From the NCBI GenBank assembly GCA_964439615.1, contig CAYTQB010000003.1:21453-85452 (forward strand): a DNA stretch of 64,000 nt, read 5' to 3'. The stretch is from an uncultured Ferruginibacter sp. GTDB lineage: Bacteria > Bacteroidota > Bacteroidia > Chitinophagales > Chitinophagaceae. The notes beneath the pieces were generated by a model. That model ran no database searches. It was not told the origin of the DNA and was given only the letters and a program-made list of their open reading frames with translations. Made by a program: the position numbers and the translations under genes. Shown piece after piece: positions 5,586-49,105 of this stretch; the first letter of the stretch is position 1; the number at the start of each line of letters is the position of its first letter.

Positions 5586-6209
5586 CTAAATTTTTGTGAG
5601 CACGGCATCCACTATTCCATAGTCAACCGATTCCTTTGCATCCATCCAGTAATCCCGGTCAAAATCCTTCATAACCTTTTCAGTTGTCTGCCCGCAGTTC
5701 CTGGCTAGTATTTCGGCTCCCATTAGTTTTGTTTTCCTGATCTGTTCGGCCATTATTTCCAGGTCAGCACTAGTACCCTGGCCACCGCCACTTGGCTGGT
5801 GTATCATTACTTCTCCATTTGGGTAAATAAATCTCTTCCCCTTTTTCCCTCCACTTAATAAAATACTGGCCATACTGGCAGCCATACCCATACATACAGT
5901 GCTAATCGGAGAACTGATCATCTGCATAGTATCATAAATTACCATGCCGCTGGTTACAATACCTCCTGGGCTGTTTATATAAAAAGTAATTTCCTTACCG
6001 GGATCAATAGCCTCCAGGTACATTAGCCGGTTAGTTATGTCTTTTGCGCTTTTATCATCCACCACACCCCATAAAAACACTTTTCGTTGTTCAATAAATT
6101 TTTTATCAAACTGCCAGCCACTCATCATCTTTTCCATGGGATTTTCCGGGCTTCCTTCTGGTTTTTCTTCTTCTTCAAAACGGGTAGTATTGTTTTTATA
6201 CAGATTCAT
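5586..6209 (-). CDS. clpP: ClpP protease subunit, paralog 2
   Basis: INSPGG, AASMA (Ser), IHQP (His) and DRDYW (Asp) triad intact. Confidence 0.95.
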
Positions 6210-6224
6210 AGTTAATACTTGTTT

Positions 6225-6923
6225 TTATTTCTGATCTTTCTTTATTTTTTTCTGGTTCATTAATAATACTTCATCAATTAAACCATATTCTTTGGCTTCA
6301 AGAGAAGTCATCCAGTGGTCCCGGTCACAATCAACGGCTACCTTATCAACAGGTTGGTCAGTATGAAATGCGATAACCTCATACAATTCCTTTTTCACTT
6401 TCTTCACTTCGTTAACCGTAATCTCAATATCTGTCGCCTGTCCTCCTGCCCCAGCACTGGGTTGGTGCATCATAATGCGGCTATGCTTTAATGCGGTACG
6501 TTTTCCTTTAGCTCCTGCACACATCAAGACAGCACCCATACTTGCTGCCATGCCTGTACAAATAGTAGCAATATCCGGTGTAATGAACTGCATGGTATCA
6601 TACATACCAAGGCCTGCATAAACACCACCGCCAGGGCAATTTATATACATTTGTATATCCCTGCTGCGATCTGTACTTTCTAAAAATAATAATTGGGCAG
6701 TTACAATGTTAGCCACCTCATCGCTTATTGGGTAACCCAGGAAAATGATTCTGTCCATCATCAACCGGCTATAAACATCCATTACAGCGATGTTCATTGG
6801 GCGCTCTTCAATGATGTTGGGTGTAAGATTGGTGACATTATGTTTTAGATACGCATCCAGCATATTACTGCTGATGCCTTTATGCTTTACTGCGTATTTT
6901 TCAAATTCTTTTCCAAAGTTCAT
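6225..6923 (-). CDS. clpP: ClpP protease subunit, paralog 1 (likely start ATG 6923)
   Basis: YSRLMMDRIIFLG, AASMG, MHQP and DRDHW motifs. Confidence 0.95.
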   Translation of the reverse strand: MNFGKEFEKYAVKHKGISSNMLDAYLKHNVTNLTPNIIEERPMNIAVMDVYSRLMMDRIIFLGYPISDEVANIVTAQLLFLESTDRSRDIQMYINCPGGGVYAGLGMYDTMQFITPDIATICTGMAASMGAVLMCAGAKGKRTALKHSRIMMHQPSAGAGGQATDIEITVNEVKKVKKELYEVIAFHTDQPVDKVAVDCDRDHWMTSLEAKEYGLIDEVLLMNQKKIKKDQK

Positions 6924-6986
6924 ACGAGGAAGATGTTTTTTAGTAGACAAATATAGTTGATTGTGATACCTGAAAAATCAAATTGT

Positions 6987-16795: not shown

Positions 16796-18505
16796 TTAAA
16801 AAAACCAATGAAGAATATAGAATATGCCTGCAGCCAGTAAACCACTTACGGGTATCGTTAATATCCAGGCCCAGAGTAAATTTACAGTAACCCCCCAACG
16901 AACAGCAGATAATCGTTTGGTTGCCCCCACACCCATGATAGACCCTGTAATGGTATGTGTGGTTGATACCGGTATCCCCATCTGCCCGGTAAAAAATAAA
17001 GTAAATGCTCCTGCTGTCTCCGCTGCAACTCCCTCCAGTGGGGTAACCTTTGTAATTTTTGTTCCCATGGTCTTCACAATCTTCCAGCCTCCGCTCATAG
17101 TACCCAAACCAATGGCCAGGTAGCAGGCTATTGGCACCCAATTAGGCAAATCAGAAAAATTCTGGATGGATCCACTGGCTATTAAAGCAGCGCCGATGAT
17201 GCCCATTACTTTTTGTGCATCATTTCCACCGTGCCCGATACTGAATGCAGCAGAACTAAAGAGCTGCAGTTTTTTAAACATGTTGGCGACCTTGAAGGCA
17301 GTTGGAGTTCTTATTTTTTCAACATACAGGTAAACAAGGGAGAATAATATTGAAGTAAAGATGATACCCCAAACGATCATACTGTTATCTGCTTTATCAA
17401 TATCTTTTGCCAGTGATTTTTCTATGCTGAACCCTGCAATTTTCTTTTTCACTTTTGGTTTATTTACTTCTCCGATCGGGTAAATAGCTTGTAAAGCGGT
17501 CATTGTGCTATCGAGTGAGATCTCTTTTTTAAAGTATTTCTTTAAAGGTTCTTTATACTTTTCAGTAGCCTCTTTTGCAATAGCATATTCGGTTTTTATT
17601 TTATCGTCACTGGCAGACCTGGCTTCCAATACAAGAAAGTCATTGGCGTTGCGTACATCATCTTTTAAACGACTGGCTTCAATATCCTTTAACCAGCCAC
17701 TGTCCATAGCGGCTTTTGCAACACCTTTTGCTCCCAGGTTATCAAAATCATTTACCAGTGCATATATCTTTTTATAATTGGGTAATGCTTTATCAAGTTT
17801 TTCTTTTGCCACATTATATGCTTTAATGGCAGCTGTATCAGAAGGGTTATTTTCCTTTTTGGCCAGTGCTTCAGCCGCTTCTTTTTTATATTTGTCTATC
17901 TTTAAAAATTTCTGCAGGTTTTCATCCATCTTACTGGTCTCAAACTTATCAAATAACAGGACGGTTAAAAATGTTGCTAAAGCAATGATCCCGATCCTGG
18001 CCCATATATTCCTCATGATGGTTACGATGGTGATGAAAATAGAGATCAGCATGCCGATAAGCGGCGCCAGAAAAATAAAAATAACGGTGTTGAAGATGAT
18101 ACTTGATTCTACGATCTTACCCCAGTTGTAGCCCATGCCTTTCAGCAACAATGCATGAGCTATTGCTGCTCCGGCAAATCCTCCTATCAATGTATGCGAA
18201 GAAGAAGACGGAATACCATACCACCAGGTAAGCAGGTTCCAGAATATAGCTGCAATTAAGCCTGCTAAAATTACCGGTAGCGTGATGAACTCTTTATTTA
18301 CCGTTTTGCTGATTGTATTTGCCACCGCATGATCCTTGAAAATAAAATAAGCCACACAATTAAAAATGGCTGCCCAAACCACAGCCTGAAATGGCGTAAG
18401 CACTTTTGTTGAAACTACTGTAGCTATTGAGTTTGCTGCATCATGAAACCCATTGATGTAGTCGAAGATCAAGGCAAGGGCTATAATTACTATTACTAAG
18501 GTCAT
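16796..18505 (-). CDS. Inorganic phosphate transporter (PiT family) with a large insertion
   Basis: NGFHDAANSIAT, GIPSSSSH, GHGGNDAQK and PVSTTH signatures; ~230 extra residues in the middle. Confidence 0.93.
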   Translation of the reverse strand: MTLVIVIIALALIFDYINGFHDAANSIATVVSTKVLTPFQAVVWAAIFNCVAYFIFKDHAVANTISKTVNKEFITLPVILAGLIAAIFWNLLTWWYGIPSSSSHTLIGGFAGAAIAHALLLKGMGYNWGKIVESSIIFNTVIFIFLAPLIGMLISIFITIVTIMRNIWARIGIIALATFLTVLLFDKFETSKMDENLQKFLKIDKYKKEAAEALAKKENNPSDTAAIKAYNVAKEKLDKALPNYKKIYALVNDFDNLGAKGVAKAAMDSGWLKDIEASRLKDDVRNANDFLVLEARSASDDKIKTEYAIAKEATEKYKEPLKKYFKKEISLDSTMTALQAIYPIGEVNKPKVKKKIAGFSIEKSLAKDIDKADNSMIVWGIIFTSILFSLVYLYVEKIRTPTAFKVANMFKKLQLFSSAAFSIGHGGNDAQKVMGIIGAALIASGSIQNFSDLPNWVPIACYLAIGLGTMSGGWKIVKTMGTKITKVTPLEGVAAETAGAFTLFFTGQMGIPVSTTHTITGSIMGVGATKRLSAVRWGVTVNLLWAWILTIPVSGLLAAGIFYILHWFF

Positions 18506-18514
18506 ATTATTTTT

Positions 18515-18613
18515 AATGTGCTAATGTGCTGATTTACTAATATGCTAATTCCAAAAATGCAGAGAGCATGCGTTAAACATTAGCAAATAAGCACATTGGC
18601 TAATTAGCAAATT
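18515..18613. repeat. Inverted array of 8-nt units (AATGTGCT x4 / AGCACATT-like x4)
   Basis: Left aatgtgct-aatgtgct-gatttact-aatatgct; right cattagca-aataagca-cattggct-aattagca. Confidence 0.75.
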
Positions 18614-18615
18614 AA

Positions 18616-19266
18616 TTATGCATACTTCACAATTATACTTTCTATTACGTTTGCAGCATCCTCACATTTGTCAGTCACAATTTCCATCACCTGGTAAATC
18701 TCCCTTTTCTTGATCACCTCTTTGGCATCTGGTTCTTCAGCAAACAATTTTTCAATACTCATATCAAAAATATCATCACCCTGGTTTTCTATACTGTTGA
18801 TGGTAACAAGTGCATCGGTGATCTGGCGCATGTTCTTCATATTACGCAGTTCCTTTACTGCCGCATGTACCGCCACACATCCCTGTGCAATAATATCTGC
18901 CATCTTGTGAATGCCGGTGTCATTGGGATTAACCCGGTAAAAATTGATCTTCTTAGCTGATGCCTGGATATAGTCGGCAATATCATCCAGTGCAGAGGCC
19001 AGGTAGTGAATATCTTCCCGGTCAAAGGGTGTAATAAAATTCTTTCCCAGTTCGGTAAATATCTGGTGGGTGTAATCATCATTCACATGCTCCATATCTT
19101 CAATTTCTTTGATCAGCTTTGCCCTTTCATCAAAGTCGGGTTCATTAACCACTTCCTTTAATTTCTCTCCCATTTTTACCAATACATCTACCACGTTTTC
19201 GAACAATTGAAAAAACACCCTGTCTTTAGGTAAAAAGATCTTGAGAATTGAATTTAACCCTGCCAT
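18616..19266 (-). CDS. DUF47 / PhoU-like phosphate transport regulator (likely start ATG 19266)
   Basis: TELGKNFITPFDREDI, ENQGD and TDKCEDAANVIESIIVKYA motifs; directly upstream of PiT. Confidence 0.92.
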   Translation of the reverse strand: MAGLNSILKIFLPKDRVFFQLFENVVDVLVKMGEKLKEVVNEPDFDERAKLIKEIEDMEHVNDDYTHQIFTELGKNFITPFDREDIHYLASALDDIADYIQASAKKINFYRVNPNDTGIHKMADIIAQGCVAVHAAVKELRNMKNMRQITDALVTINSIENQGDDIFDMSIEKLFAEEPDAKEVIKKREIYQVMEIVTDKCEDAANVIESIIVKYA

Positions 19267-19327
19267 ATAATAAGTTTTGGGCAAAGATTGGTTATTACAC
19301 AAAAAACCAGTGTCTCATCAGGATTGA

Positions 19328-19355
19328 TAATAATTTCTTAACACAGGGGTAATAT
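19328..19355 (+). promoter_or_regulatory. Pho-box-like array upstream of the porin gene
   Basis: TAATAA (19328), TAACAC (19339), TAATAT (19350) at 11-bp period. Confidence 0.55.
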
Positions 19356-19390
19356 TAAATTGTTATTCCTTTGCGGCGAAATTTGCTATA

Positions 19391-20698
19391 ATGCTTACAA
19401 AAAGACTGCCTTTGCTGCTTGCAGCATTGCTATTGTGCCAATGGCTGCATGCCCAGTTCTTAATGGATATGGTAGATACCACCAAAGAAACAGGTAAAGG
19501 TCTATTGGCTGTATATAAAAAGTTCGATCACCTGCGTATCGGCGGGTATATTCAACCCCAGTTCCAGGTAGCTTCTGCAAAAGGGGCGAAAAATTTTGAG
19601 GGTGGCGATTTTGCTTCCCAGGTAAATAACCGTTTTATGTTGCGCAGGAGCAGGGTACGTATCGACTATATTCATTTTGGCAAAGACACAAAACCCGGTG
19701 TACAGATCGTTTTTCAGTTTGATGCCAATGAAAGGGGATTTACTGTAAGGGATGTATGGGGCAGGATCGTTGAAAATAAATTCAAACTCTTTTCTTTTAC
19801 CACCGGTATTTTTGCCAGGCCATTTGGTTATGAAATAAACCTGAGCAGCAGCGACCGGGAAAGCCCCGAACGTGGACGCATGAGCCAGTTGCATGCAAAG
19901 AGCGAGCGTGACCTGGGCGCCATGTTAAGCTTTGAAGTAAGGCAAAAATCAAATCCATTAAAAAATATCAGGATCGACCTTGCTGTATTCAATGGACAGG
20001 GCATTAATGCCACAGGCGAATTCGACAATACAAAGGATCTTGTAGGACGAATAATATTAAAGCCTGTTCCTATCAGCAAAACTATCCAGCTATCGGCTGG
20101 GGCTTCCTTTCTGCATGGTGGCCTACAGAATAATACCAAATACATTTATACAACAGAAGCCACCGGTGCTGTAAAAAGAGTAGTAGTTGATTCTGCCGCC
20201 AGTAATATTGGTACCACATCGCCCCGGCGCTATTATGGAGCCGATATGCAACTGAAATTCAATAATGGCCATAACCGAATTACCGAATTGAGGGCCGAAT
20301 TCATCACCGGCATACAAACCGGCACAGCCAATAACCCCGAAACACCTACCGCATTACTTACAGGAACCGATGGTTTTCACAAACGGCATTTCACCGGCGC
20401 TTATTTTTATTTACTGCAGCACCTTTTTTCAACCCAGCACCAGTTAATTATCAAATATGACTGGTATGACCCAAACAGTAAAGTAAAAGGCAACGAGATC
20501 GGGGCCCCGGGTTCTAATTTTACAGCTGCCAACATAAGATATAATACGCTTGGTTTAGGCTACCTGTATTATGTTACCGAAAACATCAAACTGGTTTTAT
20601 ACTATGCCCGGGTTTGGAATGAAAAAACATTACTCACCGGTTATACAACCGATGTAAAAGACAATGTTTTCACTTGCAGGCTGCAATACCGTTTCTGA
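19391..20698 (+). CDS. Phosphate-selective porin (OprO/OprP family)
   Basis: Signal peptide, RIGGYIQPQF, ESPERGRM, alternating beta strands, C-terminal LQYRF; phosphate-gene context. Confidence 0.75.
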   Translation: MLTKRLPLLLAALLLCQWLHAQFLMDMVDTTKETGKGLLAVYKKFDHLRIGGYIQPQFQVASAKGAKNFEGGDFASQVNNRFMLRRSRVRIDYIHFGKDTKPGVQIVFQFDANERGFTVRDVWGRIVENKFKLFSFTTGIFARPFGYEINLSSSDRESPERGRMSQLHAKSERDLGAMLSFEVRQKSNPLKNIRIDLAVFNGQGINATGEFDNTKDLVGRIILKPVPISKTIQLSAGASFLHGGLQNNTKYIYTTEATGAVKRVVVDSAASNIGTTSPRRYYGADMQLKFNNGHNRITELRAEFITGIQTGTANNPETPTALLTGTDGFHKRHFTGAYFYLLQHLFSTQHQLIIKYDWYDPNSKVKGNEIGAPGSNFTAANIRYNTLGLGYLYYVTENIKLVLYYARVWNEKTLLTGYTTDVKDNVFTCRLQYRF

Positions 20699-20711
20699 GT
20701 GCATATTCCGT

Positions 20712-20750
20712 TAACATATACGTAACATAGCAGTAACAATTACCTAACCT
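20712..20750 (+). promoter_or_regulatory. Pho-box-like array upstream of the TonB-dependent receptor
   Basis: TAACAT (20712), TAACAT (20723), TAACAA (20734), TAACCT (20745) at exact 11-bp period. Confidence 0.8.
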
Positions 20751-20805
20751 TACTTTCATCTTGACATAATACATAAGTAGTCTTTTTGCAGTAAATATTT
20801 ATTGC

Positions 20806-23586
20806 ATGAAACTGTTATCACTACTACTTGCTTTTATTACATTCTCTCTTGCAGCTATAGCCCAAAAAGGAAAGATCGAAGGAAAATTAACTGATGCCAG
20901 AACTGGCCTGCCATTAGCAGGTGTTTCGGTAATCATTAAAAACACCAATAAGGGAGTTGCATCGGACCAGGAAGGAAGATATGTGATCAATGCAGACGGA
21001 GGCTCAAAGGTCACTTTAGTTTTCTCTTATAACAATGTTTCTAAAGAAGTAGAAGATATTGAAGTTGCAAGCGGTAAAGTGGCAACTCAGGATGTTACAC
21101 TGGAAGTGAAAGCCAAAACAGCTGATGCCGTTGTTGTCCGCTCCTCCAGCAATGCCAGGAAAGAAACAGCAGCAGCTTTGATCAGCTACCAACGGAACAC
21201 TTCAGTAGTAGCACAGGTGATCAGTGCAGAAACGATCAAGCGTTCGCCTGATAAAAATACCGGTGAAGTTTTAAAAAGAGTTACCGGCACCAGTGTGCAG
21301 GAAGGAAAATATTTAGTAGTAAGGGGCCTTAGCGACCGTTACAATCAGGCCATGTTGAATGGAATAGCTTTGAGCAGTACCGAACCGGACAGGAAGACAT
21401 TCAGTTTTGACATTTTTCCTTCGACAATGATAGATAATATCATCATGAATAAAACCTTTATTCCCGAATTACCGGGCGAATGGGCGGGTGGTTTGGTTCA
21501 GGTACAAACAAAAGACATTCCCTCTTCTTCTTTCTTTAATATTCAGCTAGGCACGGGTTTTAACAGTAATACTATCGGCAAAAAATTTTTACAGGCTCCC
21601 GGTGATAAATTAGATTGGTTGGGTATTGATAACGGAGCAAGGGCTATTCCTTCTTCTTTGCCTTTAAAAACAGCATTCAGTGCCTTATCACCTGCAGAAA
21701 AAGCTGAATTAGGGAAAAACTTCCGGAATAACTGGGTAACCAAATCGGGAACTGCGCCTGTTAACTCTTCTTTCCAGATCAATGGCGGCGGTACTACAAA
21801 AATATTTGGTAAAAAGGTAGCCGGCATTTTCGCTCTAACGTATAATCAAAGCAATAAGCGCACTCCTTTTGATAATACATTCATAGCAAACAATGCCGGG
21901 GATGTGGAGTTACGGTACAACAACAATAAATTCAGCAGGGATGTGCTGGCGGGTGCACTTGCTAATGTAACCGTACAGTTAAACAATAACAACAAAATAT
22001 CTGTAAAGAACCTCATCAACATCAATACTTCTGATTTTGTGAATGACCGTTATGACGGAAGGGATTATATTTTAAGTGGTGGTGGCGCAGGTGACAGGAT
22101 AAGGGCAACAGAGATTGGATTCAGACAGAATACTTTTTTCAATACGCAGATCATTGGCGAACACAATATGCCAAAGATAGAAACAAGGGTTAAATGGTAT
22201 GGAGGTTTTAATATTCTTGATCAGTATATACCCGATCAGCGCCGATTATTTTATACCCAGGATGGCACTACGCCCAATGCTCCTTACTATGCTTTACTTG
22301 GCCTGGGAGCAGGTCAAAAAAGCGGCAGTATCTTTTACAGTTTCTTAAATGACTATATCTATAATGCAGGCGGTGATGTTACCAAATCATTTAACCTGAA
22401 AGGTAAAAAACACAGTGTAAAAGCCGGTTATCTTTTCCAGGTAAAAGACAGGTTGTTTGACAGCCGTCCATTTTACACCAATACCGCCAGCAATGCGTTA
22501 AAATTATTGTCGGCTGATCAATTATATGCTCCTGAAAATTTTGGTATTGGAAATGACAAAGTACAGTTTGATGAAATTAACGGAAATGCTTACCGATATG
22601 TGGCAAATACCATTTTAAATGCTGTTTACCTTCAGTTTGATAACCCCATTGGAAATAGACTTCGTTTGGTGTGGGGTGTAAGATTCGAGAGTTTTGACCA
22701 GCTGGTAGGTAGTGTACAAAAGAGCGACCCAAGGCATGTAAACACATTGGTAAAAGATTTTTTGCCCGGCCTGAATCTTACTTACAGGTTAAATACAAAA
22801 ACAAATTTCCGTTTTGCAGCTAGTCAAACTGTTATCCGGCCTGAGTTCAGGGAATTAAGCCCGTTTGCATTTTATGATTTTGAACTGGGAGCACAGGTAG
22901 TGGGTAACAGAACTGCACAACGTACAAAAGTTTCAAACTTTGACCTGCGTTATGAACTTTATCCACGGGCAGGGGAATTAATTACTGTGGGCGCTTACTT
23001 TAAACATTTTGACAAACCTATTGAGTATTATTTTAACCGAACAGGTCCAGGTACCAATACCTTCAACATTTTAAATACAAAAAATGCAACTGCATTTGGT
23101 GGCGAACTGGAATTCAGGAAAAAACTGGATTTTGTAAACGCACTTAAGAATTTCACATTAAGCGGAAACATGAGTTACATCTACAGCCGTGTTAAAGATA
23201 CTACCGGAACAGTCGATCGTCCGTTGCAGGGCCAAAGTCCCTACCTCATTAACTTCGGAATTCAGTATGATATTGAAAAGATCGGATTCAGCAGTACCCT
23301 GTTATTTAACCAGATCGGCCGTCGCATCTTGTTTGTAGGTAATGAAGCCATATCAGATATATGGGAAGCACCAAGGCCATTACTGGATTTACAGCTTTCT
23401 AAAAAAATATTTGGTAAAAAGGGAGAGGTGAAGCTGAACATCAGCGATATCATAAACAGGAAAGCTAATTTTTATCACGACCTGGATGACAATAAAAAAT
23501 ACAGCAGTTCTTCCAAAGATGTGTTGGCTATCACCAGGAATTATGGCACCAACTATACAATAACATTTGCTTACAGTATCAAATAA
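20806..23586 (+). CDS. TonB-dependent receptor with N-terminal carboxypeptidase-regulatory-like domain
   Basis: Signal peptide; G.PLAGVSV N-domain; plug motif VVRGLSDRYNQAMLNG; barrel strands; GRPLQGQSPY-type motif. Confidence 0.92.
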   Translation: MKLLSLLLAFITFSLAAIAQKGKIEGKLTDARTGLPLAGVSVIIKNTNKGVASDQEGRYVINADGGSKVTLVFSYNNVSKEVEDIEVASGKVATQDVTLEVKAKTADAVVVRSSSNARKETAAALISYQRNTSVVAQVISAETIKRSPDKNTGEVLKRVTGTSVQEGKYLVVRGLSDRYNQAMLNGIALSSTEPDRKTFSFDIFPSTMIDNIIMNKTFIPELPGEWAGGLVQVQTKDIPSSSFFNIQLGTGFNSNTIGKKFLQAPGDKLDWLGIDNGARAIPSSLPLKTAFSALSPAEKAELGKNFRNNWVTKSGTAPVNSSFQINGGGTTKIFGKKVAGIFALTYNQSNKRTPFDNTFIANNAGDVELRYNNNKFSRDVLAGALANVTVQLNNNNKISVKNLININTSDFVNDRYDGRDYILSGGGAGDRIRATEIGFRQNTFFNTQIIGEHNMPKIETRVKWYGGFNILDQYIPDQRRLFYTQDGTTPNAPYYALLGLGAGQKSGSIFYSFLNDYIYNAGGDVTKSFNLKGKKHSVKAGYLFQVKDRLFDSRPFYTNTASNALKLLSADQLYAPENFGIGNDKVQFDEINGNAYRYVANTILNAVYLQFDNPIGNRLRLVWGVRFESFDQLVGSVQKSDPRHVNTLVKDFLPGLNLTYRLNTKTNFRFAASQTVIRPEFRELSPFAFYDFELGAQVVGNRTAQRTKVSNFDLRYELYPRAGELITVGAYFKHFDKPIEYYFNRTGPGTNTFNILNTKNATAFGGELEFRKKLDFVNALKNFTLSGNMSYIYSRVKDTTGTVDRPLQGQSPYLINFGIQYDIEKIGFSSTLLFNQIGRRILFVGNEAISDIWEAPRPLLDLQLSKKIFGKKGEVKLNISDIINRKANFYHDLDDNKKYSSSSKDVLAITRNYGTNYTITFAYSIK

Positions 23587-23612
23587 ATAAAAAACACTTA
23601 AAAAAAATAAAC

Positions 23613-25022
23613 ATGAAAAAGTTATTCATTGCAGCCGCCTTCTTAGGTTTAATAACCGCGGGTTGCCGTAAAATTGAAGTTGACGGCACTACAACAACTG
23701 TTGTATCGGGTGGCAACACTGGTGGTACCCCTACAGAAAATGTGATCCTGGAAGGAAGGATCATTGAAAACCGTACACTAAAAGCACAGTTCACTTACAA
23801 ACTCCGTGGTTTGGTGTATGTAACCAATGGCGCTGTTCTTGCTATTGAGCCAGGAACTAAAATAGTTGGCGAAACCGGTAAAAATGGTGGCTTGATCATT
23901 TGCCGAAGTGCAAAAATTGTTGCTGATGGTACAGTAGATAAACCTATTGTATTTACTTCTGAATCTGCTACTCCTGCACCAGGTGATTGGGCAGGGCTGG
24001 TGATACTGGGCAACGCCCCCACAAATGCAACTTTTAACGGCCAGACAGGTATTGGTGAGATTGAGGGTGGAATAAATAACAGTGATGGGTTGGGTTTGTA
24101 TGGCCTCGGGGCAAGCAGCAACCCTGCTGATAACAGCGGTATATTGAGATACGTTCGTATTGAATATGCCGGTTATGCTTTTTTACCCGATAAAGAAATT
24201 AATGGATTAACATTGGGTGGTGTTGGTAACAAAACCATTATTGATTATGTAGAAGTTTACCATGCCAATGATGATAGTTTTGAATGGTTTGGCGGAACAG
24301 TAAATTGCTCACACCTTATTGCATACAAAGGTCTGGATGATGACTGGGATGTAGATAATGGTTTCTCCGGTAAAGTACAATTTGGCATCAGTCTGAGAGA
24401 CAGTTCTGTTGCAGATATTAGTGGGAGTAATGGATTTGAAGTTGATAATGATGCAAGCGGAAGTAATACAGCCCCGCAAACCAGCGCTGTATTCAGTAAT
24501 ATGACAGTTATTGGCCCCAGAGCTACTTTGACAAATGCAGGCAACAGTAATTTTAAAAGAGGCATGCACCTTCGCCGTAACAGTTCTATCAGTATTTTTA
24601 ATTCAATTATTATGGGGTGGCCGGTAGGCCTACTGGTAGATGCTTCTACAGGGCGGCCAACTGATCTGAACATATCAGGCGGGACCATGGTACTGGCTAA
24701 TAATATCCTTGCATCTAACAACACTCCCTTTTCTTACACAGCAAGTGCAAGCGCTCCTACCGGCTGGACAACAACAGACCTGGCCAGTTTCTTTAACCAA
24801 CCAGCTAACAACAACAGTGTGCTTGCAACCAACAATGATGTAGCATTAGGTGCACCATTCAAATATGACAATACGGTTGATTTTAACCCGGCTGCCTCAT
24901 CGCCGGCTTTAACAGGAGCAGCTTTCTCCAATGCAAAACTAACAGGTTTTACCTCAGTGACCTACCGTGGTGCAACTAACATTAGCGATGCCTGGTGGAA
25001 AGGATGGACAAAATTCAATTGA
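23613..25022 (+). CDS. Uncharacterised lipoprotein, predicted parallel beta-helix
   Basis: Lipobox ITAG-C; SGILRYVRIEYAG, DDSFEWFGGTVN, DDDWDVDNG and NGFEVDN motifs; not SusD-like. Confidence 0.8.
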   Translation: MKKLFIAAAFLGLITAGCRKIEVDGTTTTVVSGGNTGGTPTENVILEGRIIENRTLKAQFTYKLRGLVYVTNGAVLAIEPGTKIVGETGKNGGLIICRSAKIVADGTVDKPIVFTSESATPAPGDWAGLVILGNAPTNATFNGQTGIGEIEGGINNSDGLGLYGLGASSNPADNSGILRYVRIEYAGYAFLPDKEINGLTLGGVGNKTIIDYVEVYHANDDSFEWFGGTVNCSHLIAYKGLDDDWDVDNGFSGKVQFGISLRDSSVADISGSNGFEVDNDASGSNTAPQTSAVFSNMTVIGPRATLTNAGNSNFKRGMHLRRNSSISIFNSIIMGWPVGLLVDASTGRPTDLNISGGTMVLANNILASNNTPFSYTASASAPTGWTTTDLASFFNQPANNNSVLATNNDVALGAPFKYDNTVDFNPAASSPALTGAAFSNAKLTGFTSVTYRGATNISDAWWKGWTKFN

Positions 25023-25046
25023 TAAAAAAATCTTAAGCAAATAGCG

Positions 25047-25070
25047 ATCCTGAACGCAGTTGAAGGACTC
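25047..25070. repeat. Degenerate REP-like palindrome (CCTGAACGCAGTTGAAGG)
   Basis: Resembles the GAGCGAAGTCGA hairpins at 34179-34227. Confidence 0.45.
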
Positions 25071-25078
25071 ATGCTTGA

Positions 25079-25112
25079 GCCGGCTTTATTCTTATTGCCG
25101 GCCTTTTTATTT
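25079..25112 (+). terminator. Intrinsic terminator after the lipoprotein gene
   Basis: GCCGGC-N12-GCCGGC stem followed by CTTTTTATTTCTTT. Confidence 0.65.
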
Positions 25113-25119
25113 CTTTCCA

Positions 25120-25147
25120 GTATTAAGTTAATGTTACCAAATTGTTA
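25120..25147 (-). promoter_or_regulatory. Pho-box-like array in reverse orientation
   Basis: Minus strand TAACAA (25147), TAACAT (25136), TAATAC (25125) at 11-bp period. Confidence 0.55.
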
Positions 25148-25232
25148 CTGTGCACATTTAAATCACATTTTTTTTAACAGATGATAATTCCGGGCATTTG
25201 AAATTACATTCACATCATCAAAATCATTTTCT

Positions 25233-25718
25233 ATGAAATGGGTTAGCGTAAATACAGGTACTGCCGATGAGACTTTCGAATTATGGAACAGCGAGAAAAA
25301 ACTGGCTGATATATCTTTCAGTAACCGCACCAGGTTTGCAAGGATTGTAAGCAGCCTCGGCAAGAGAATTTTCTCCTTCGAAAAAAAAGGATTCCTGCTC
25401 TCCAAAGAAATTGTAAAGAACGAGTATGGTATAAAGATGGGTGAAGTAGAAGAATCGAGACCCGGTTCTGGTAAAGGCCAGGTAATGCTCGATGGAAAGA
25501 AATATCTCTTTGTTTACAACGAAAATAATTCCGGTGAACTGGTACTGTATGATGAGCTGATGCAAAAAAGCCTGCTCACCTGCAGTTTCAATATGGTGAA
25601 CAAAGGGCTGATGAAAACAAAGTCCTTATTCGATAATAAATTCGCCAGCCTCTTACTGATACTTTGCTGGTACACATTTCAGCCGCATTCCGCTTCGGCA
25701 GCAAAAGTGGTTTCCTGA
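25233..25718 (+). CDS. Hypothetical protein (beta-rich, 161 aa)
   Basis: Fills the gap between the lipoprotein and the kinase; no recognised motif. Confidence 0.7.
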   Translation: MKWVSVNTGTADETFELWNSEKKLADISFSNRTRFARIVSSLGKRIFSFEKKGFLLSKEIVKNEYGIKMGEVEESRPGSGKGQVMLDGKKYLFVYNENNSGELVLYDELMQKSLLTCSFNMVNKGLMKTKSLFDNKFASLLLILCWYTFQPHSASAAKVVS

Positions 25719-25850
25719 TTTCTTTTTCATCCTGCAGCAACTCTTCCCTACAACCCCATTGCAAGGTCCAGGGAAGTTTGTACCTAGAAGCCTATAAACA
25801 AATCCTTACGCCAGTGTTTTGTGCGTGTTAAGCGAAAGCAATAAGGCATA

Positions 25851-26900
25851 TCAATCTTTCCTGGTTTGTAACGTAAATCCAAACGTACTCCCCACATCTG
25901 TCTTGCTTCGTACATGAATGGTTTGCCCGTGTGCCTCAATAATGTGTTTGCAGATAGATAAACCCAGGCCGCTGCCGCCCACTTTCCGGCTCCTTGCCAG
26001 GTCGGTACGGTAGAACCGTTCAAATATGCGGTGCAGGTGCTCTTCAGAAATGCCGGAACCATCGTCACTTATCTCAATTAATATTCTTGCCCCGTCAACT
26101 TTATAGAAACTGGATTCAATGATACCATGCTGTTTTCCGTATTTAATGGCGTTATCCACCAGGTTAATAAATACCTGACGTATCTTTTCTTTATCTGCAA
26201 AAACGGTCAATGGTAATTCGCAACCTTTTTTAATGATGCACCTGATCTGTTTTTCATCTGCTTTCATCGCTAAGGATTCATACACTTCTTTCAGCAGGTC
26301 CTGTATAACAAAACTGTCTTTTAATAAAAGTTGTTCCCCGCTTTCTAATTTTGAGATGGCATCCAGGTCATCTACTAGGTTCACCAGCCGGTCAATATTG
26401 CGGGAAGTACTCTGCAGGAATTTTTTATTCACTTCAGGATTATCCAATGCACCGTTGATGAGCGTATCCACATAACCCTGTATGGCAAAGATGGGTGTCT
26501 TCAGTTCGTGGCTCAGGTTCTGCAAAAATTCTTTGCGGTAGGCTTCATTCTGCTGCAACATCTCTATCTCTGCCTTGCGTTGCCGGGCCCAGCTTTCCAC
26601 ATCATCCCTTACTTCATCAATACTTTTTTGCGGTAGAATATTTTTATAATAAAATTCTTCTTTCTTGCTTGCCTTGGTCTGGTAAATGAATTTGTAGATG
26701 AGTTTTATTTTACGGTAAATGAAATTCTGCAGCGTGTATAATATCAACCCGTAAGAACCAAGGAAGATGACAACAAATGATGAAAGGGCTATCCACCATA
26801 CCGGCTTAAATATATATATACCCAGTGCAATAGGAATGGCCAGCGCTAATGCGGTTAAACCCGATAATTGCTGTGGTGAAATGTTTTTTGAAGATGGCAT
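25851..26900 (-). CDS. phoR: Sensor histidine kinase, PhoR-like
   Basis: Two N-terminal TMs, FLQNLSHELKTP H-box, NLVDNAIKY, DDGSGI, FERFYR and GSGLGLSI motifs; phosphate context. Confidence 0.85.
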   Translation of the reverse strand: MPSSKNISPQQLSGLTALALAIPIALGIYIFKPVWWIALSSFVVIFLGSYGLILYTLQNFIYRKIKLIYKFIYQTKASKKEEFYYKNILPQKSIDEVRDDVESWARQRKAEIEMLQQNEAYRKEFLQNLSHELKTPIFAIQGYVDTLINGALDNPEVNKKFLQSTSRNIDRLVNLVDDLDAISKLESGEQLLLKDSFVIQDLLKEVYESLAMKADEKQIRCIIKKGCELPLTVFADKEKIRQVFINLVDNAIKYGKQHGIIESSFYKVDGARILIEISDDGSGISEEHLHRIFERFYRTDLARSRKVGGSGLGLSICKHIIEAHGQTIHVRSKTDVGSTFGFTLQTRKD

Positions 26901-26904
26901 GGTT

Positions 26905-26989
26905 GGTCATTACTCATTAGTCACTTGTCATTTCTGTCGATAGTAAAGTTACTGGCAAAAAATGACTCAATGACCAATGACTAATGATC
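26905..26989. repeat. Inverted array of 7-nt units (AGTCATT x4 / AATGACT x4)
   Basis: Left ggtcatt-actcatt-agtcact-tgtcatt; right aatgact-c-aatgacc-aatgact-aatgatc. Confidence 0.8.
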
Positions 26990-26994
26990 GATTT

Positions 26995-27678
26995 TTATAT
27001 TTGGAACTTATACCCCACTCCTTTCACCGTCGTGATACAATCGAGATTGAGCTTCTGCCTTATCTTACGGATATGTACATCAATGGTGCGGTCTCCCACA
27101 ATCACTTCAGTTCCCCAAACCTGGTTCAATATTTCGTTGCGGAGAAAAACTTTACCCGGTTTACCTGCCAGCAACGCCAGCAATTCAAATTCCTTACGGG
27201 CCAGGATGATATTATTACCCAGGTAATTGATGATGTATTTTTCCCGGTCAATTTTCAGGTCGCCTATCTGCAGCAAGCCGGTATCTTCTTTATTGATACG
27301 CCTGAACAGGGCGTTCACCTTACTCACCAAAACCTTAGGGCTTACCGGTTTGGTTAGATAATCATCAGCCCCTGTCTCCAGCCCCTTCACCTCACTTCCT
27401 TCGTCGCTCAATGCGGTAAGGAATATGATGAGTGTATCATTGAATGCAGGTTGCAGGCGAAGGATATTACATACTTCAATCCCATTCTTGCCGGGCATCA
27501 TAATATCGAGAATGATCAGGTCGGGTTGGAATTTTTTCGCCATGTCAATGGCTTCATTACCATTCTTTGCGGTAACCACTTCATATCCTTCATTCCGCAG
27601 GTTGTATTGGATGATTTCAAGGATATCCGGTTCGTCGTCGGCAATTAATATTTTTTTAACAGTATTTGCTGTCCCCAT
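26995..27678 (-). CDS. phoB: OmpR/PhoB-family response regulator (likely start ATG 27678)
   Basis: ADDE, LDIMMP, GADDYLTKP receiver; RTIDVHIRKIR...TVKGVGY winged helix. TATTTTTG -7 at 27685-27692 covers the ORF-track TTG start. Confidence 0.85.
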   Translation of the reverse strand: MGTANTVKKILIADDEPDILEIIQYNLRNEGYEVVTAKNGNEAIDMAKKFQPDLIILDIMMPGKNGIEVCNILRLQPAFNDTLIIFLTALSDEGSEVKGLETGADDYLTKPVSPKVLVSKVNALFRRINKEDTGLLQIGDLKIDREKYIINYLGNNIILARKEFELLALLAGKPGKVFLRNEILNQVWGTEVIVGDRTIDVHIRKIRQKLNLDCITTVKGVGYKFQI

Positions 27679-27722
27679 ACAATGCAAAAATAGTCTTTAC
27701 CGTTAATTAGGAACCCGGTTTG

Positions 27723-27750
27723 CTGTTCGTTTTGTATTATCAAATTGTTA
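27723..27750 (-). promoter_or_regulatory. Pho-box-like array upstream of the response regulator
   Basis: Minus strand TAACAA (27750), TAATAC (27739), GAACAG (27728) at 11-bp period. Confidence 0.6.
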
Positions 27751-27846
27751 AGGCAATACAGCATATCCGCAGCCATTTTCATCTTAATCCCAAATGAATA
27801 TGCAGGCCATCATGTATTTTTAGCATCTTTGCAGTTGAACAGGACT

Positions 27847-30060
27847 ATGAAAAAATATTTATTCTTCTTTTCCCTCTTACTAACAGCCGTTCCCGTTTTT
27901 GCAACCGTGGATACAGTTAAAGTACCCATTTATCGCCAGCTTTTTCACGACAGGATCAATGAAGAGCAACGCCTGCTGGACAGGATGGATGGCAAAATAG
28001 ACGGCATCATCAAAGCCACTCATAAACCTGAAATAAACCTCGCCATTACTGATGTGATGGTAAGGAAGATTGACCTGTTGCAGCAGGCTGTGGAGGGTAA
28101 CGACAAGTTAGTGACCAACAATGAAAAGATCAGGTATTTAAGTTATATTGAAAACGTAGTTAAGGGATATAAATACGGATTAAAGACCAAAGAACTCAAT
28201 CCGGCTTATGCCCCTATGCTGATTGAAAACTTTGAAAAAATAATGACGGATAATATTGACAGCCTGAGTATGGTTGCCGATATTGAAAAGGTTCCCTATG
28301 CTGTAGGTAAAATAATTACTGAAATATTTTCGGAGAATAAAGGTTACGGGGAAAGTAAAAAAATACTGTATAAAAAATTCTGCATACTCAATCCCGATAA
28401 GATATTACAAACCATCGAACCTTACGTTAATGAACCCTTTGCCGATTCATTGATCACCATAAGTTGTAAGTTCAACCCTACGGCTATTTATTCAGTAGCA
28501 CAGGCAAAGGAATCCAAAATGGGGATGCTTGTTCACCGGAACACCAACTCACTGGTAACCGCTGTGGTGGAACTCAGCAAAACCCCCAATGCCCTTTTGT
28601 ATTTTCCTTTTTTAGATGATATAATAAAAGGGAAGAAAACCGTGGAAAGCATTAAGAAATATGTAGGCGACGGTGAAGTTGGTTATGATAGTGTTGGTTA
28701 TTTTAAACTGTTGGTTCAAACAGAAATTGAATATTTTAAACGACTTGTATCGCCGGCGAAAGATACACCTATTGCTATGTTTGGCGCCAATGGGTTAAGG
28801 GAAGTATTGAGGGGAAAAGCCATCCAGCATTTTGTCACACCAATAAACACACTGCACGACCTGAGCAATATTAACCTGAGGATGAAAGCCATTGATTCGC
28901 TCTCAGCAGTTGATCTTTACTTTATGATGGTGATGAGTGAAAGTGAGATCTATACATCCAGCTATAAACATAGTTTTTTCAGGATGCTGCAACGAATGGG
29001 TGCCGAGCCAAGAACAGATTCTTTATTACTGAACGTTCATTTTGATTACTTCAAAAAGTTTATCAAGATGGCAGCCAATTATAATAAGCTGGATACTTTT
29101 TTAAAGTTTATGCCCAAGACAGCATCAGAAACTTTAATGCGTGGGTTTATCGCCAACCTGGATAATACGGGCAACCTCGAAGATGCGGTTGATGTGGCAG
29201 ACTCCTACAGTAGTATCAATGACGAAAAACTGCAGAGCACCATCCTGGGTTATGTAATAGAGAATGAAAAAAAATGTATAGAGAATAATAACGTGAGGGG
29301 TAAAACAATTTATGGTTTGCTGAAATCAATTTTTCTTTCGGCAGACAGTACCAATAAAATAGACCTCACCAATATCCTCGGTATTCCTTCAATTTATGAA
29401 ATAGAGAGTAAAAATATACAGGATGACAGCGGAAGGATCATTCAGCAGGTGTATTGGTACGGCGATGAAGATGGTAAAACCTATTTCCCTTTCTTTATAA
29501 GTTCATTCTCACCCAAAGAATGGAAAATAACATCCAATAAAGAATGGTACGAAATAAGGTCATTAAAAGGTAATGTTTGGATCTATGCAAACCGGCCATT
29601 AGATAATGATGCCAACCTGGATGACAGTGCACAGATACATTTAAACAACTACCTGGCAGAAAATAACATGCAGCCTGCAGTAGTGGTACATCGTGGCCAT
29701 AGCTACTGGCTTCCACGTACCATCAGGCAAATGTCGGGTAATGCAAAAATTGTTGTCCTGGGTTCCTGTGGTGGTTATAAAAACTTAAATGATATCATCG
29801 AGAGCAATCCTGATGCACATATTATCTCCACCAAAGAGATCGGCGCAGGAGATATCAACAGGCCCATCCTGAATTATTTAAATCAAACCTTCGAATCGGG
29901 AAACAAACTGGTGTGGAAGAATATGTGGGCTGCACTCACTAAATTATTTTCAACCGATCCTAATAAGAATGTACGGGAGAGTTGGGAAGATTATATTCCG
30001 CCTTATAAAAACCTGGGCGCTATTTTCCTGAAAGGATATAACAATTCATTGCTCCAGTAA
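27847..30060 (+). CDS. Exported hypothetical protein (737 aa) with C-terminal HRGH...GSCGG motif (likely start ATG 27847)
   Basis: Signal peptide MKKYLFFFSLLLTAVPVFA; helical N-terminal part; AVVVHRGHSYW and KIVVLGSCGG. Confidence 0.8.
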   Translation: MKKYLFFFSLLLTAVPVFATVDTVKVPIYRQLFHDRINEEQRLLDRMDGKIDGIIKATHKPEINLAITDVMVRKIDLLQQAVEGNDKLVTNNEKIRYLSYIENVVKGYKYGLKTKELNPAYAPMLIENFEKIMTDNIDSLSMVADIEKVPYAVGKIITEIFSENKGYGESKKILYKKFCILNPDKILQTIEPYVNEPFADSLITISCKFNPTAIYSVAQAKESKMGMLVHRNTNSLVTAVVELSKTPNALLYFPFLDDIIKGKKTVESIKKYVGDGEVGYDSVGYFKLLVQTEIEYFKRLVSPAKDTPIAMFGANGLREVLRGKAIQHFVTPINTLHDLSNINLRMKAIDSLSAVDLYFMMVMSESEIYTSSYKHSFFRMLQRMGAEPRTDSLLLNVHFDYFKKFIKMAANYNKLDTFLKFMPKTASETLMRGFIANLDNTGNLEDAVDVADSYSSINDEKLQSTILGYVIENEKKCIENNNVRGKTIYGLLKSIFLSADSTNKIDLTNILGIPSIYEIESKNIQDDSGRIIQQVYWYGDEDGKTYFPFFISSFSPKEWKITSNKEWYEIRSLKGNVWIYANRPLDNDANLDDSAQIHLNNYLAENNMQPAVVVHRGHSYWLPRTIRQMSGNAKIVVLGSCGGYKNLNDIIESNPDAHIISTKEIGAGDINRPILNYLNQTFESGNKLVWKNMWAALTKLFSTDPNKNVRESWEDYIPPYKNLGAIFLKGYNNSLLQ

Positions 30061-30067
30061 CAGGCAT

Positions 30068-30084
30068 CCCGATAGCTATCAGGA
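30068..30084. repeat. REP-like palindrome (CC)GATAGCTATC(AGG)
   Basis: cccgatagctatcagg with a perfect 10-bp palindromic core. Confidence 0.5.
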
Positions 30085-30113
30085 ACGAAGCCTAAACTCT
30101 ATACCTTTGCTAT

Positions 30114-31919
30114 ATGACCGAAAAAACGAAGGCGAAAAGAAAGATTTTTAATTTTTCATTACTGCGCAGGGTATTTCGTTTTGCTGCTCCATATAAAAAT
30201 AAGTTCTATGGTTCCCTCGTATTGGCGATAATACTTGCTGCAATTGCACCCATACGCCCCCTGTTGATTCAGCTCACTATTAATGACGGTATCAAGGGGG
30301 AAACAAGTTCTCATTTTGTAAATGGCCCGGGAGGTTTTATTATTGAGATCACCATAATACAGATCATATTGTTGTTGCTGGAAACAGCAGGACGTTTTTT
30401 ATTTACTTTCCTTACGGCATCGCTGGGGCAAAGTGTGGTAAAAGATCTGAGAGTAAGCACCTACAATAAGATACTACACCTTAATTTAACACAGTACGAC
30501 AAAACACCTATCGGCACACTCACTACAAGAACAATAAATGACATTGAATCCATCAACGATATTTTCAGCGACGGATTGATACCCATCATTGCCGATATGC
30601 TTTCCATCATTTCAATACTCACTTACATGTTTTATGTTGACTGGGGTTTGACCCTGGTTTGCCTGGCACCTTTTCCATTCCTGATCGTAGCTACGTACTT
30701 TTTCAAAGAAAGCGTGAACAAATCTTTTATCCGTGTCCGCAATGCAGTAGCCAGCCTTAACGCATTTGTACAGGAGCATATCACAGGCATGGCGATAGTA
30801 CAGGCTTTTGCAGCAGAGAAAAGAGAGTTCAATAAATTCAAAACCATTAATAAGGAACACCGCAATGCCAACATAAAAGCCATTTTTGCTTACTCTGTTT
30901 TTTTTCCTGTTGTGGAACTGGTGATGGCTTTATCAATCGGCTTATTGGTATGGTGGGCAGCAAGAGATGTGGTTAATCATGACCAGGCAGAAAAAGTGGC
31001 CGGAGTGATAACAGCATTCATTCTTTGCCTCAATCTGTTATTTCGTCCGCTCCGGGTAATTGCTGATAAGTTCAATGTGCTGCAGATGGGTATGATTGCC
31101 AGTGAACGGGTGTTTAAGGTGCTGGATAACGAGGATACAATCATCAACGAAGGCAATCTTAAAGCCGATCATATAAAAGGCAAAGTTGAATTTGACAAGG
31201 TTTGGTTTGCGTACATTGATGAACAATATGTTTTAAAAAATATTTCTTTTACCATCAATGCCGGCGAAACACTGGCCATTGTGGGGTACACCGGCAGCGG
31301 CAAAACATCCATCATCAGTTTATTGAACCGGTTGTACCAGATAAACAAAGGCCGGATAAAAATTGATGATACCAATATTGAAGATTTTCATTTAGACGAC
31401 CTGAGGGCCAGAATAGCTGTGGTACTACAGGACGTTTTCCTCTTCAGTGGTTCTGTAGCTGATAACGTTACGCTGCGTAATCCCTCAATAAAAAAAGAAG
31501 ACGTGGTGAAAGCTGCGGAACTCATCGGCATTCATGATTTCATTATGCAGTTGCCCGGCAACTATGATTACCATGTTATGGAAAGGGGAGCCACTTTATC
31601 ATTAGGACAACGGCAATTGCTGTCTTTTGTAAGAGCCTTACTTTATGACCCCGCCATTTTGATACTGGATGAAGCCACTTCGTCGGTTGATACAGAAAGT
31701 GAGGCGTTGATACAACATGCCATTGAAAAACTGATCGCCAACCGCACTTCAATTATTATTGCCCATCGTTTGTCCACCATCCGTAAAGCCAATAAGATCA
31801 TAGTACTTGACCGGGGCGAAATAAAAGAGATCGGCACACATGATGAACTTTTAGAAAAGAAGGGATTCTATTACCAGCTCCATAAAATGCAGTTTGAAAA
31901 CCAGGAAAAAGTGGCGTAA
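30114..31919 (+). CDS. ABC transporter, fused permease/ATPase (ABCB/MsbA-like exporter)
   Basis: Six-TM N-domain, GYTGSGKT, LSLGQRQ, ILILDEATS and IAHRLST motifs; TACCTTTG at 30102-30109. Confidence 0.95.
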   Translation: MTEKTKAKRKIFNFSLLRRVFRFAAPYKNKFYGSLVLAIILAAIAPIRPLLIQLTINDGIKGETSSHFVNGPGGFIIEITIIQIILLLLETAGRFLFTFLTASLGQSVVKDLRVSTYNKILHLNLTQYDKTPIGTLTTRTINDIESINDIFSDGLIPIIADMLSIISILTYMFYVDWGLTLVCLAPFPFLIVATYFFKESVNKSFIRVRNAVASLNAFVQEHITGMAIVQAFAAEKREFNKFKTINKEHRNANIKAIFAYSVFFPVVELVMALSIGLLVWWAARDVVNHDQAEKVAGVITAFILCLNLLFRPLRVIADKFNVLQMGMIASERVFKVLDNEDTIINEGNLKADHIKGKVEFDKVWFAYIDEQYVLKNISFTINAGETLAIVGYTGSGKTSIISLLNRLYQINKGRIKIDDTNIEDFHLDDLRARIAVVLQDVFLFSGSVADNVTLRNPSIKKEDVVKAAELIGIHDFIMQLPGNYDYHVMERGATLSLGQRQLLSFVRALLYDPAILILDEATSSVDTESEALIQHAIEKLIANRTSIIIAHRLSTIRKANKIIVLDRGEIKEIGTHDELLEKKGFYYQLHKMQFENQEKVA

Positions 31920-34758: not shown

Positions 34759-34838
34759 TTTGATAATTTGAAGATTTGGTAATGTGCTAGTTGTGCAGAC
34801 TCCTATCACCAAATCTTCAAATTACCAAATTACCAAAT
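34758..34838. repeat. Inverted array of 8-nt units (ATTTGGTA / TACCAAAT)
   Basis: TGATAATTTGAAGATTTGGTAAT pairs with ATCACCAAATCTTCAAATTACCA (21/23). Confidence 0.85.
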
Positions 34839-34845
34839 CGAAGAA

Positions 34846-37730: not shown

Positions 37731-37753
37731 CGTTATCCGTTAATGGTTATTTG

Positions 37754-49041: not shown

Positions 49042-49105
49042 TTGAATGTTGAATTATAAATGTTGAATAAGGCCTTCATTCAACATTCATCATTTATCAT
49101 TTAAC
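49042..49105. repeat. Inverted array of 7-nt units (TTGAATG / CATTCAA)
   Basis: Left ttgaatg-ttgaatt-ataaatg-ttgaata; right attcaac-attcatc-atttatc-atttaac. Confidence 0.8.

Follow-up and report, generated by a model that had tools for sequence, protein, structure and literature searches.

The repeat unit described in this report is closest to two known regulator sites, the PhoP box of Bacillus subtilis and, read on the other strand, the TGTTA repeat of Escherichia coli ArcA. The B. subtilis box was reportedly defined by Liu and Hulett in 1998 as a TT(A/T/C)ACA core whose repeats lie about 11 bp apart, with at least four per activated promoter, and the core of the E. coli Pho box is CTGTCAT. 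For the unit as such, the nearest precedent, judged from the available part of its published account, is the motif of PhoP from Riemerella anatipestifer, a species that belongs to the Bacteroidota. DAP-seq with that regulator gave TTTAACA as the most conserved nucleotides, validated by EMSA, and yielded 583 peaks with few regulated genes; the same part of the account describes the motif without a phased multi-unit architecture, a promoter register or a phosphate regulon (PMC9603813). More broadly, proteins of the OmpR/PhoB family, with PhoB, B. subtilis PhoP, Streptomyces PhoP and ArcA as established cases, bind as head-to-tail dimers to direct repeats one helical turn apart and oligomerise along additional units (PMC9306846, PMC4173790, PMC2275107). 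The E. coli Pho box consists of two 11-bp direct repeats, and PhoB contacts sigma-70 (PMC9306846). Sites for E. coli ArcA are built of TGTTA repeats spaced 11 bp centre to centre, as a minimal pair with one to three more, and both binding and repression varied in strength with how many repeats there were and how good they were (PMC4173790, PMC3798270). Streptomyces PHO boxes likewise comprise 11-nt direct repeat units in variable number, of which the core units are bound first and the adjacent ones at higher protein concentration (PMC2275107).

In soil, water and wastewater, organic phosphorus is recycled to a major extent by Bacteroidota, whose phosphate-starvation genes have been identified by proteomics and transcriptomics. 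The phoBR cluster PUSIV of Flavobacterium johnsoniae encodes a receptor, Fjoh_0545, and a lipoprotein of pectate-lyase fold, Fjoh_0546, with an OprP gene nearby; upon phosphate depletion Fjoh_0545 rises about 8 log2-fold, and receptor and lipoprotein rise 8-10 log2-fold (PMC8115612). That study names no cis-element, the terms 'Pho box' and 'promoter' having zero occurrences in its text (PMC8115612). In Bacteroides fragilis, PhoB binds the pstC promoter, the motif not being given (PMC3547664). Full-text literature searches returned neither a description of a Pho box for Bacteroidota nor a cis-element that defines the phosphate regulon.

Here we describe an array of TAACAT-type direct repeats in front of a TonB-dependent receptor gene in a 64-kb stretch of DNA (the window) from activated sludge, for which the closest genome bin is a Ferruginibacter whose receptor is 97% identical. 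The array is probably a Pho box, that is, a tandem array for the phosphorylated form of the neighbouring response regulator, activating a weak promoter. Most likely the kind of switch is an ordinary one, and what appears new is its definition, at family level, for the Chitinophagaceae. The earlier note on this DNA had spoken of a candidate Bacteroidota Pho box; the evidence given here covers Chitinophagaceae and one further contig (L158), and a phylum-wide label goes beyond that scope.

The genes that surround the array form a cluster connected with phosphate:

16796-18505, minus strand: PHO4/Pit phosphate transporter gene, divergent from the porin gene
18616-19302, minus strand: PhoU_div gene, divergent from the porin gene
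19391-20698, plus strand: OprP-like porin gene, 435 aa, product 37% identical (E 6e-75) to the Porin_O_P porin of contig L158
20806-23586, plus strand: TonB-dependent receptor gene, with the Pfam families CarbopepD_reg_2, Plug and OMP_b-brl_3
23613-25022, plus strand: lipoprotein gene, 469 aa, Pfam PF28492, predicted right-handed beta-helix
25233-25718, plus strand: ORF of 161 aa, no family match
25851-26900, minus strand: gene for a short, PhoR-like histidine kinase, 349 aa, best NCBIfam matches PnpS/PhoR
26995-27687, minus strand, likely ATG at 27678: gene for an OmpR/PhoB-family response regulator, Response_reg and Trans_reg_C

The receptor shares all three of its Pfam families with Fjoh_0545. 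Its partner, the lipoprotein gene, always lies 3' of the receptor gene wherever the sequence of relatives extends beyond the receptor end, and a metatranscriptome contig of a relative bridges the junction between the two; the metatranscriptome contigs, from a relative 93-97% identical, cover coding regions and this junction, and they lie outside 20084-20967, the stretch that includes the receptor promoter. Segetibacter aerophilus, too, has such a lipoprotein, 68% identical. Neither the porin nor the lipoprotein sequence had a match when searched against the PDB. A structural model of the lipoprotein (pLDDT 78.6, pTM 0.84) gave weak PDB matches (best E 5.6e-4, TM at most 0.35), the better of which were nearly all right-handed beta-helix proteins, among them pectate lyases, alginate epimerases and tailspikes, in agreement with the fold published for Fjoh_0546. 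An ORF of 771 aa with no Pfam match is transcribed divergently from the regulator gene and is followed by an MsbA-like ABC exporter gene (27745-31919); in many relatives, too, this pair adjoins the genes of regulator and kinase. The remainder of the window holds housekeeping genes, and at 5586-6950 a pair of ClpP paralogue genes sits beside clpX.

The receptor promoter itself is arranged, from 5' to 3', as the dinucleotide cc, six repeat units, AGTAG, a -7 box TCTTTTTGC, AGTAAATATTTATTGC and the receptor ATG at 20806. Its elements are listed below, the bit scores being taken from a matrix built from the units of relatives with the window left out and the offsets being counted from the TTTG of the -7 box:

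20710-20720, plus strand: unit 1, GTTAACATATA, TAACAT at 20712, offset -73, 8.6 bits
20721-20731, plus strand: unit 2, CGTAACATAGC, TAACAT at 20723, offset -62, 11.7 bits
20732-20742, plus strand: unit 3, AGTAACAATTA, TAACAA at 20734, offset -51, 8.6 bits
20743-20753, plus strand: unit 4, CCTAACCTTAC, TAACCT at 20745, offset -40, 7.5 bits
20754-20764, plus strand: unit 5, degenerate, TTTCATCTTGA, TCATCT at 20756, offset -29, 1.0 bit
20765-20775, plus strand: unit 6, CATAATACATA, TAATAC at 20767, offset -18, 3.7 bits
20781-20789, plus strand: non-consensus -7 box of the receptor promoter, TCTTTTTGC, of which 20781-20788 is TCTTTTTG

When the coordinates were read again, the four hexamers that the earlier note had placed at 20712, 20723, 20734 and 20745, with a period of exactly 11 bp, proved correct, as did its placing of TCTTTTTG at 20781, 36 bp past the start of the fourth hexamer. 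Its four units are the strong ones; the total has to be raised to six, with in-phase units at 20756 and 20767 filling the 36-bp gap, so that direct repeats at an exact 11-bp period abut the -7 box. The consensus is thus six copies of cgTAACATTnc that share one face of the helix and occupy the stretch between about -75 and -10 bp, counted from the TTTG of the -7 box. No other locus in the 64-kb window has a 4-mer repeated four times at an exact period of 11 bp, and under a first-order Markov model of the window the expected number of such loci is 0.02 for period 11 and 0.455 for periods 5-30 taken together. Given these simulated expectations the repeat by itself is inconclusive, its origin by chance being, taken alone, moderately improbable and not overwhelmingly so. 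In the control scan, 4-mers repeated four times were also found at 2445-2475, 34810-34842, 37732-37760 and 49077-49105, with periods of 6, 8, 7 and 7 bp, respectively.

Among the sequence comparisons, the decisive support for the array being real is its conservation across relatives. A scan of species-representative genomes yielded 80 loci in Chitinophagaceae and allied groups, at which the receptor orthologue is 50-97% identical, and 78 upstream regions, the window counted in, were aligned after each had been anchored at the TTTG closest to the start codon. Units start at -73, -62, -51, -40, -29 and -18 from this TTTG in 77 of the 78. The core cgTAACATT is conserved, with spacers that mostly drift: information is maximal at T-A-A-C-A-T(-T), as in columns -40 to -37 (T 77, A 75, A 77 and C 64, n = 78), the two bases that precede each core (c/g, then g) are moderately conserved, most spacer positions hold 0.04 to about 0.3 bits, and upstream of -76 the content is near zero. 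Although units 5 and 6 score poorly in the window, relatives conserve these two positions as well as almost any in the array. Columns -29 to -26 of unit 5 (T 74, C 36 or A 28, A 75, C 48 or T 27, n = 78) read T(C/A)A(C/T) in relatives, and unit 6, with T 75, A 77, A 77 and C 53 or T 24 in columns -18 to -15 (n = 78), is TAACAT in most of them.

Conservation extends to the fault in the promoter. The -7 box of the receptor promoter has the family consensus TCTCTTTGC, in which TTTGC is invariant or nearly so, and the A that TAnnTTTG, the consensus for Bacteroidota, has in second place is present in only 8 of the 78 regions and missing in 70. The deviation that had been noticed in the window alone is therefore itself a conserved property of this promoter.

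These patterns bear on the idea that the array is no protein site at all, and is either an 11-bp tandem repeat born of slippage or bent, UP-element-like DNA without a sequence-specific reader. Phased A-rich units are able to bend DNA, and when metagenome contigs were scanned for exact matches to TAACAT-N5-TAACAT-N5-TAACAT, a high proportion of the matches listed were TAACAT-bearing 11-bp microsatellites in unrelated DNA, where such repeats are evidently common. Here, however, spacers vary from unit to unit and from species to species while TAACAT is kept, its C and T positions included; the register to the -7 box is fixed; the core recurs at other genes with other spacers, and in inverted orientation too; and neutral repeats are not expected to persist down to 50% protein identity. 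We consider this explanation very improbable, and for a slippage repeat in particular the conserved cores, the mostly drifting spacers and the fixed register led us to reject it.

The same alignment weighs on an equally improbable reading at the level of RNA, by which transcripts reading through from the porin gene would carry UAACAU repeats in the inter-cistronic RNA that bind a protein or form a structure. In favour of it, no terminator-like site turned up in a consensus scan of the DNA from the porin stop (20698) to the receptor ATG. Against such an element, the register of the array follows the promoter element rather than the start codon, and the array persists where the upstream gene differs or is absent and is inverted elsewhere. 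The predicted fold of 20699-20810 is no better than that of shuffled sequences (z = +0.63), and an RNA element was rejected on this result; Rfam gave no match over 19200-27800 save a chance snoRNA. A palindrome between the -7 box and the ATG, GCAGTAAATATTTATTGC (20787-20804), is imperfect in the window and was also discarded as a general feature, palindrome lengths overall being no greater than in shuffles; in three relatives (L003, L036 and L078) it is perfect over arms of 9-10 bp.

An 11-bp matrix was built from the units of relatives without the window, and three consecutive units were scored on both strands. The three best sites in the window start at 20710 (receptor, 29.0 bits), 25149 on the minus strand (26.4 bits) and 19326 (porin, 21.4 bits); the next scores about 13 bits, and the maximum over 40 simulated windows is 19.2 bits. 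All three are intergenic and fall within 19.3-25.2 kb, inside a single 8.5-kb phosphate cluster. The two further arrays, with the -7-like box of the porin promoter, are as follows:

19326-19358, plus strand: three-unit porin array, GATAATAATTT CTTAACACAGG GGTAATATTAA, third best in the window
19366-19374, plus strand: -7-like box of the porin promoter, TTCCTTTGC, with units at -42, -31 and -20 from its TTTG
25117-25149, minus strand: inverted three-unit array upstream of the 161-aa ORF, AGTAACAATTT GGTAACATTAA CTTAATACTGG, second best in the window

The register of the porin array is shifted by 2 bp from that of the receptor promoter. The Pit/PhoU_div operon (16796..19302, minus strand) has no strong array of its own in the matrix scan of the window.

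Across the 80 loci of relatives the matrix finds 139 sites of at least 20 bits, compared with 0 in five simulations. Seventy-four of the 139 precede the receptor gene and are circular, being the training data of the matrix, and the other 65 are independent of training. The porin gene is preceded by a site of at least 20 bits in 16 relatives, PAP2 phosphatase genes are preceded by arrays at six loci, and arrays also stand before a choice-of-anchor-I protein gene and a metallophosphoesterase gene. Inverted sites, about 20 in number, lie roughly 125 bp upstream of the 161-aa ORF, and 19 of the 21 loci with this ORF have an inverted site of at least 18 bits. Around these sites is a nearly invariant block of about 50 bp (25117-25181 in the window), ATGTTACCAAATTGTTACTgtGCACATTTAAATCACATT...T(A/C)ACAG, upstream of the 161-aa ORF. 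It comprises two to three inverted TAACA units followed by forward CACATT units at an 11-12-bp period, occurs in 19 of the 21 ORF-bearing relatives and is conserved far beyond the spacers of the receptor array. The block could be a repressing or dual-orientation regulator site.

The regulator gene has a site of its own, weaker than the three top sites of the window:

27731-27752, minus strand: two-unit site of the regulator gene, CTTAACAATTT GATAATACAAA, at -62 and -51 from the TTTG of its own -7 box
27685-27692, minus strand: consensus -7 box of the regulator promoter, TATTTTTG

Before this gene TTAACAATTnnATAATA is conserved in 16 of 20 relatives, and the -7 box of the regulator promoter in relatives is TATTTTTG or TACTTTTG, a consensus box in contrast with the conserved non-consensus one of the receptor promoter. 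The two-unit site overlaps the annotated TTG start of the divergent 771-aa ORF.

As to the proteins, the best NCBIfam matches of the regulator are PhoB at 227.5 bits (cut-off 296.2) and Bacteroidetes PhoB at 206.5 bits (cut-off 270), and the PhoR and PnpS scores of the kinase are likewise under the curated cut-offs. The genomic context supports a putative PhoB/PhoR orthology, with NCBIfam scores that stay below the cut-offs. The kinase has two adjacent transmembrane segments with almost no periplasmic loop and no PAS domain match.

A further organism places the same site beside genes of phosphate uptake. In the scan for three exact TAACAT units, the promoter-like cases among the matches listed were contigs L093 and L096 (receptor), L108 (receptor-like) and L158 (oprP-pstSCA). 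On L158 (36% GC) the order is a kinase gene of 342 aa, an array, a small ORF, a second array, and then the genes for Porin_O_P, PstS, PstC and PstA. The second array reads TAACAA followed by three TAACAT, its last unit 18 bp before the TTTG of TAAGTTTG. The L158 kinase is similar in size and layout to that of the window, with a core 42% identical. The same unit in the same register as in the receptor array thus precedes a predicted pst operon, beside the gene of a PhoR-like kinase, in a different organism; the window itself has no pst operon. The two arrays of L158 (4180-4620, minus strand) are near-duplicates of four units each, about 260 bp apart, and the first precedes an ORF for a membrane protein of roughly 60 aa, with the PhoR-like kinase gene immediately upstream.

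With these sites in hand we can consider a different reader for the array: an OmpR-family regulator that is not the neighbouring one, or one that does not respond to phosphate, in the manner of ArcA or of Riemerella PhoP, global regulators with a TAACA/TGTTA core. The TGTTA/TAACA core at 11-bp spacing belongs to ArcA as well, Riemerella 'PhoP' has no tie to phosphate in the available part of its account, the neighbouring regulator scores under the PhoB cut-offs, and in some relatives the receptor operon and its array are distant from the regulator gene. The array accompanies the receptor operon also in relatives in which the porin, PhoU and regulator genes do not adjoin it. On the opposite side, the gene of the neighbouring regulator is itself preceded by the conserved motif, the targets of the motif are phosphate-related (the OprP-like porin, PAP2 phosphatases, and oprP-pstSCA next to a PhoR-like kinase), and the long ORFs of the window include no further OmpR-family regulator. 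We judge such a reader to be unlikely. An ArcA-type operator agrees with the array in repeat and spacing, and disagrees in core-promoter overlap and redox regulon, the targets here being phosphate-related.

For the Pho-box reading, by comparison, the locus offers repeats of about 11 bp, a fixed promoter position, recurrence at phosphate genes that include pst (on L158) and a putative autoregulatory site. The suggestion that the repeats are an activator site for the neighbouring regulator at a weak promoter finds support in this comparative evidence, namely the register, the deviation of the -7 box, and the sites at porin, regulator, phosphatase and pst genes. Counted against the Pho-box reading are the 2-bp shift at the porin gene, the weakness of units 5 and 6, the Pit/PhoU_div operon without a strong array and the NCBIfam scores below cut-off. 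The inverted array of the 161-aa ORF also weighs against a simple activator model, which does not explain it.

From the arrangement of sites and genes we infer the following sequence of events. Upon phosphate limitation the short PhoR-like kinase (25851-26900) would phosphorylate the adjoining regulator (26995-27687), which would settle on the units head to tail, probably in the form of three dimers in tandem. Binding may be nucleated at the four strong distal units, and cooperativity may fill the two weak proximal ones; such filling toward the promoter is suggested by the very distribution of strength, strong distally and weak proximally. The proximal units would replace a -33 element and recruit RNA polymerase to a -7 box, TCTTTTTG, that is without the consensus TA. 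Direct recruitment of RNA polymerase fits because the proximal pair occupies the place of the -33 element and the -7 box is defective. The outcome would be that the operon of the TonB receptor and the beta-helix lipoprotein is switched on. Through the shorter arrays the same regulator may act on the OprP-like porin gene and, in positive autoregulation, on its own gene, and through the inverted array it may also act on the 161-aa ORF.

Seen in this light, the array can be set beside the systems introduced at the outset. It is like the B. subtilis PhoP box in having a TAACA core on the coding strand, a core of about 6 bp with a 5-bp spacer, and several tandem units, suggestive of oligomerising dimers, that abut from upstream the core promoter of genes linked to phosphate starvation. 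It differs in its -33/-7 promoter (with a TTTG-containing -7 box) in place of -35/-10, in its six units of strict register, in its preferred unit cgTAACATT and in a regulator that is only distantly related. With the E. coli Pho box it has in common the 11-bp period, the replacement of the upstream promoter element, a weak promoter that would depend on its activator and a likely autoregulation of the regulator; its core, in contrast, is TAACAT, and it has three times as many units. The ArcA repeat TGTTA is the reverse complement of the TAACA of the array, at equal spacing; at icdA, however, ArcA is a redox-responsive repressor with a footprint over the transcription start, whereas the array stands 5' of the -7 box and belongs to a phosphate cluster. 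The Streptomyces PHO box differs in its GC-rich unit and belongs to another phylum.

If validated, the unit (cgTAACATT at an 11-bp period, the last at -18) would allow Pho regulons to be read from genomes and metagenome bins of Chitinophagaceae and would flag uncharacterised members, such as the receptor with its beta-helix lipoprotein, the 161-aa protein and a candidate small RNA. A further use would be as a test case for OmpR-family activators on the unusual -33/-7 promoters of the phylum. A broader proposal, which we regard as rather doubtful at this stage, is that the architecture is specific to Bacteroidota, three dimers replacing the -33 element of the sigma-A(Bfr) type, and that the regulon includes a conserved candidate small RNA of about 100 nt. 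Were the latter true, it would be a Pho-regulated riboregulator in a phylum with very few known.

The candidate corresponds to a conserved element at 25031-25112, which in the window is the 3' end of the receptor/lipoprotein operon and has no match in Rfam. It consists in order of (T)TCCTTAAGCAAATAGCAA, CATGCTTG and a terminator hairpin with the conserved loop TTAYTCTTAT, and it carries the motif TTCCTTAAGCAAATAGCAA. The stem of the hairpin, whose covariation was read by eye, has compensatory changes (CCACCCG/CGGGTGG, CCACCTG/CAGGTGG and CCAGCG/CGCTGG, with GCCGGC/GCCGGC in the window). Copies are found in relatives, for example at L039:11317-11483 and L023:11283-11461, and 14 of the 24 copies in the loci of relatives have a TAACAT array of their own within 170 nt upstream, several with a CTTGCA -7-like box.
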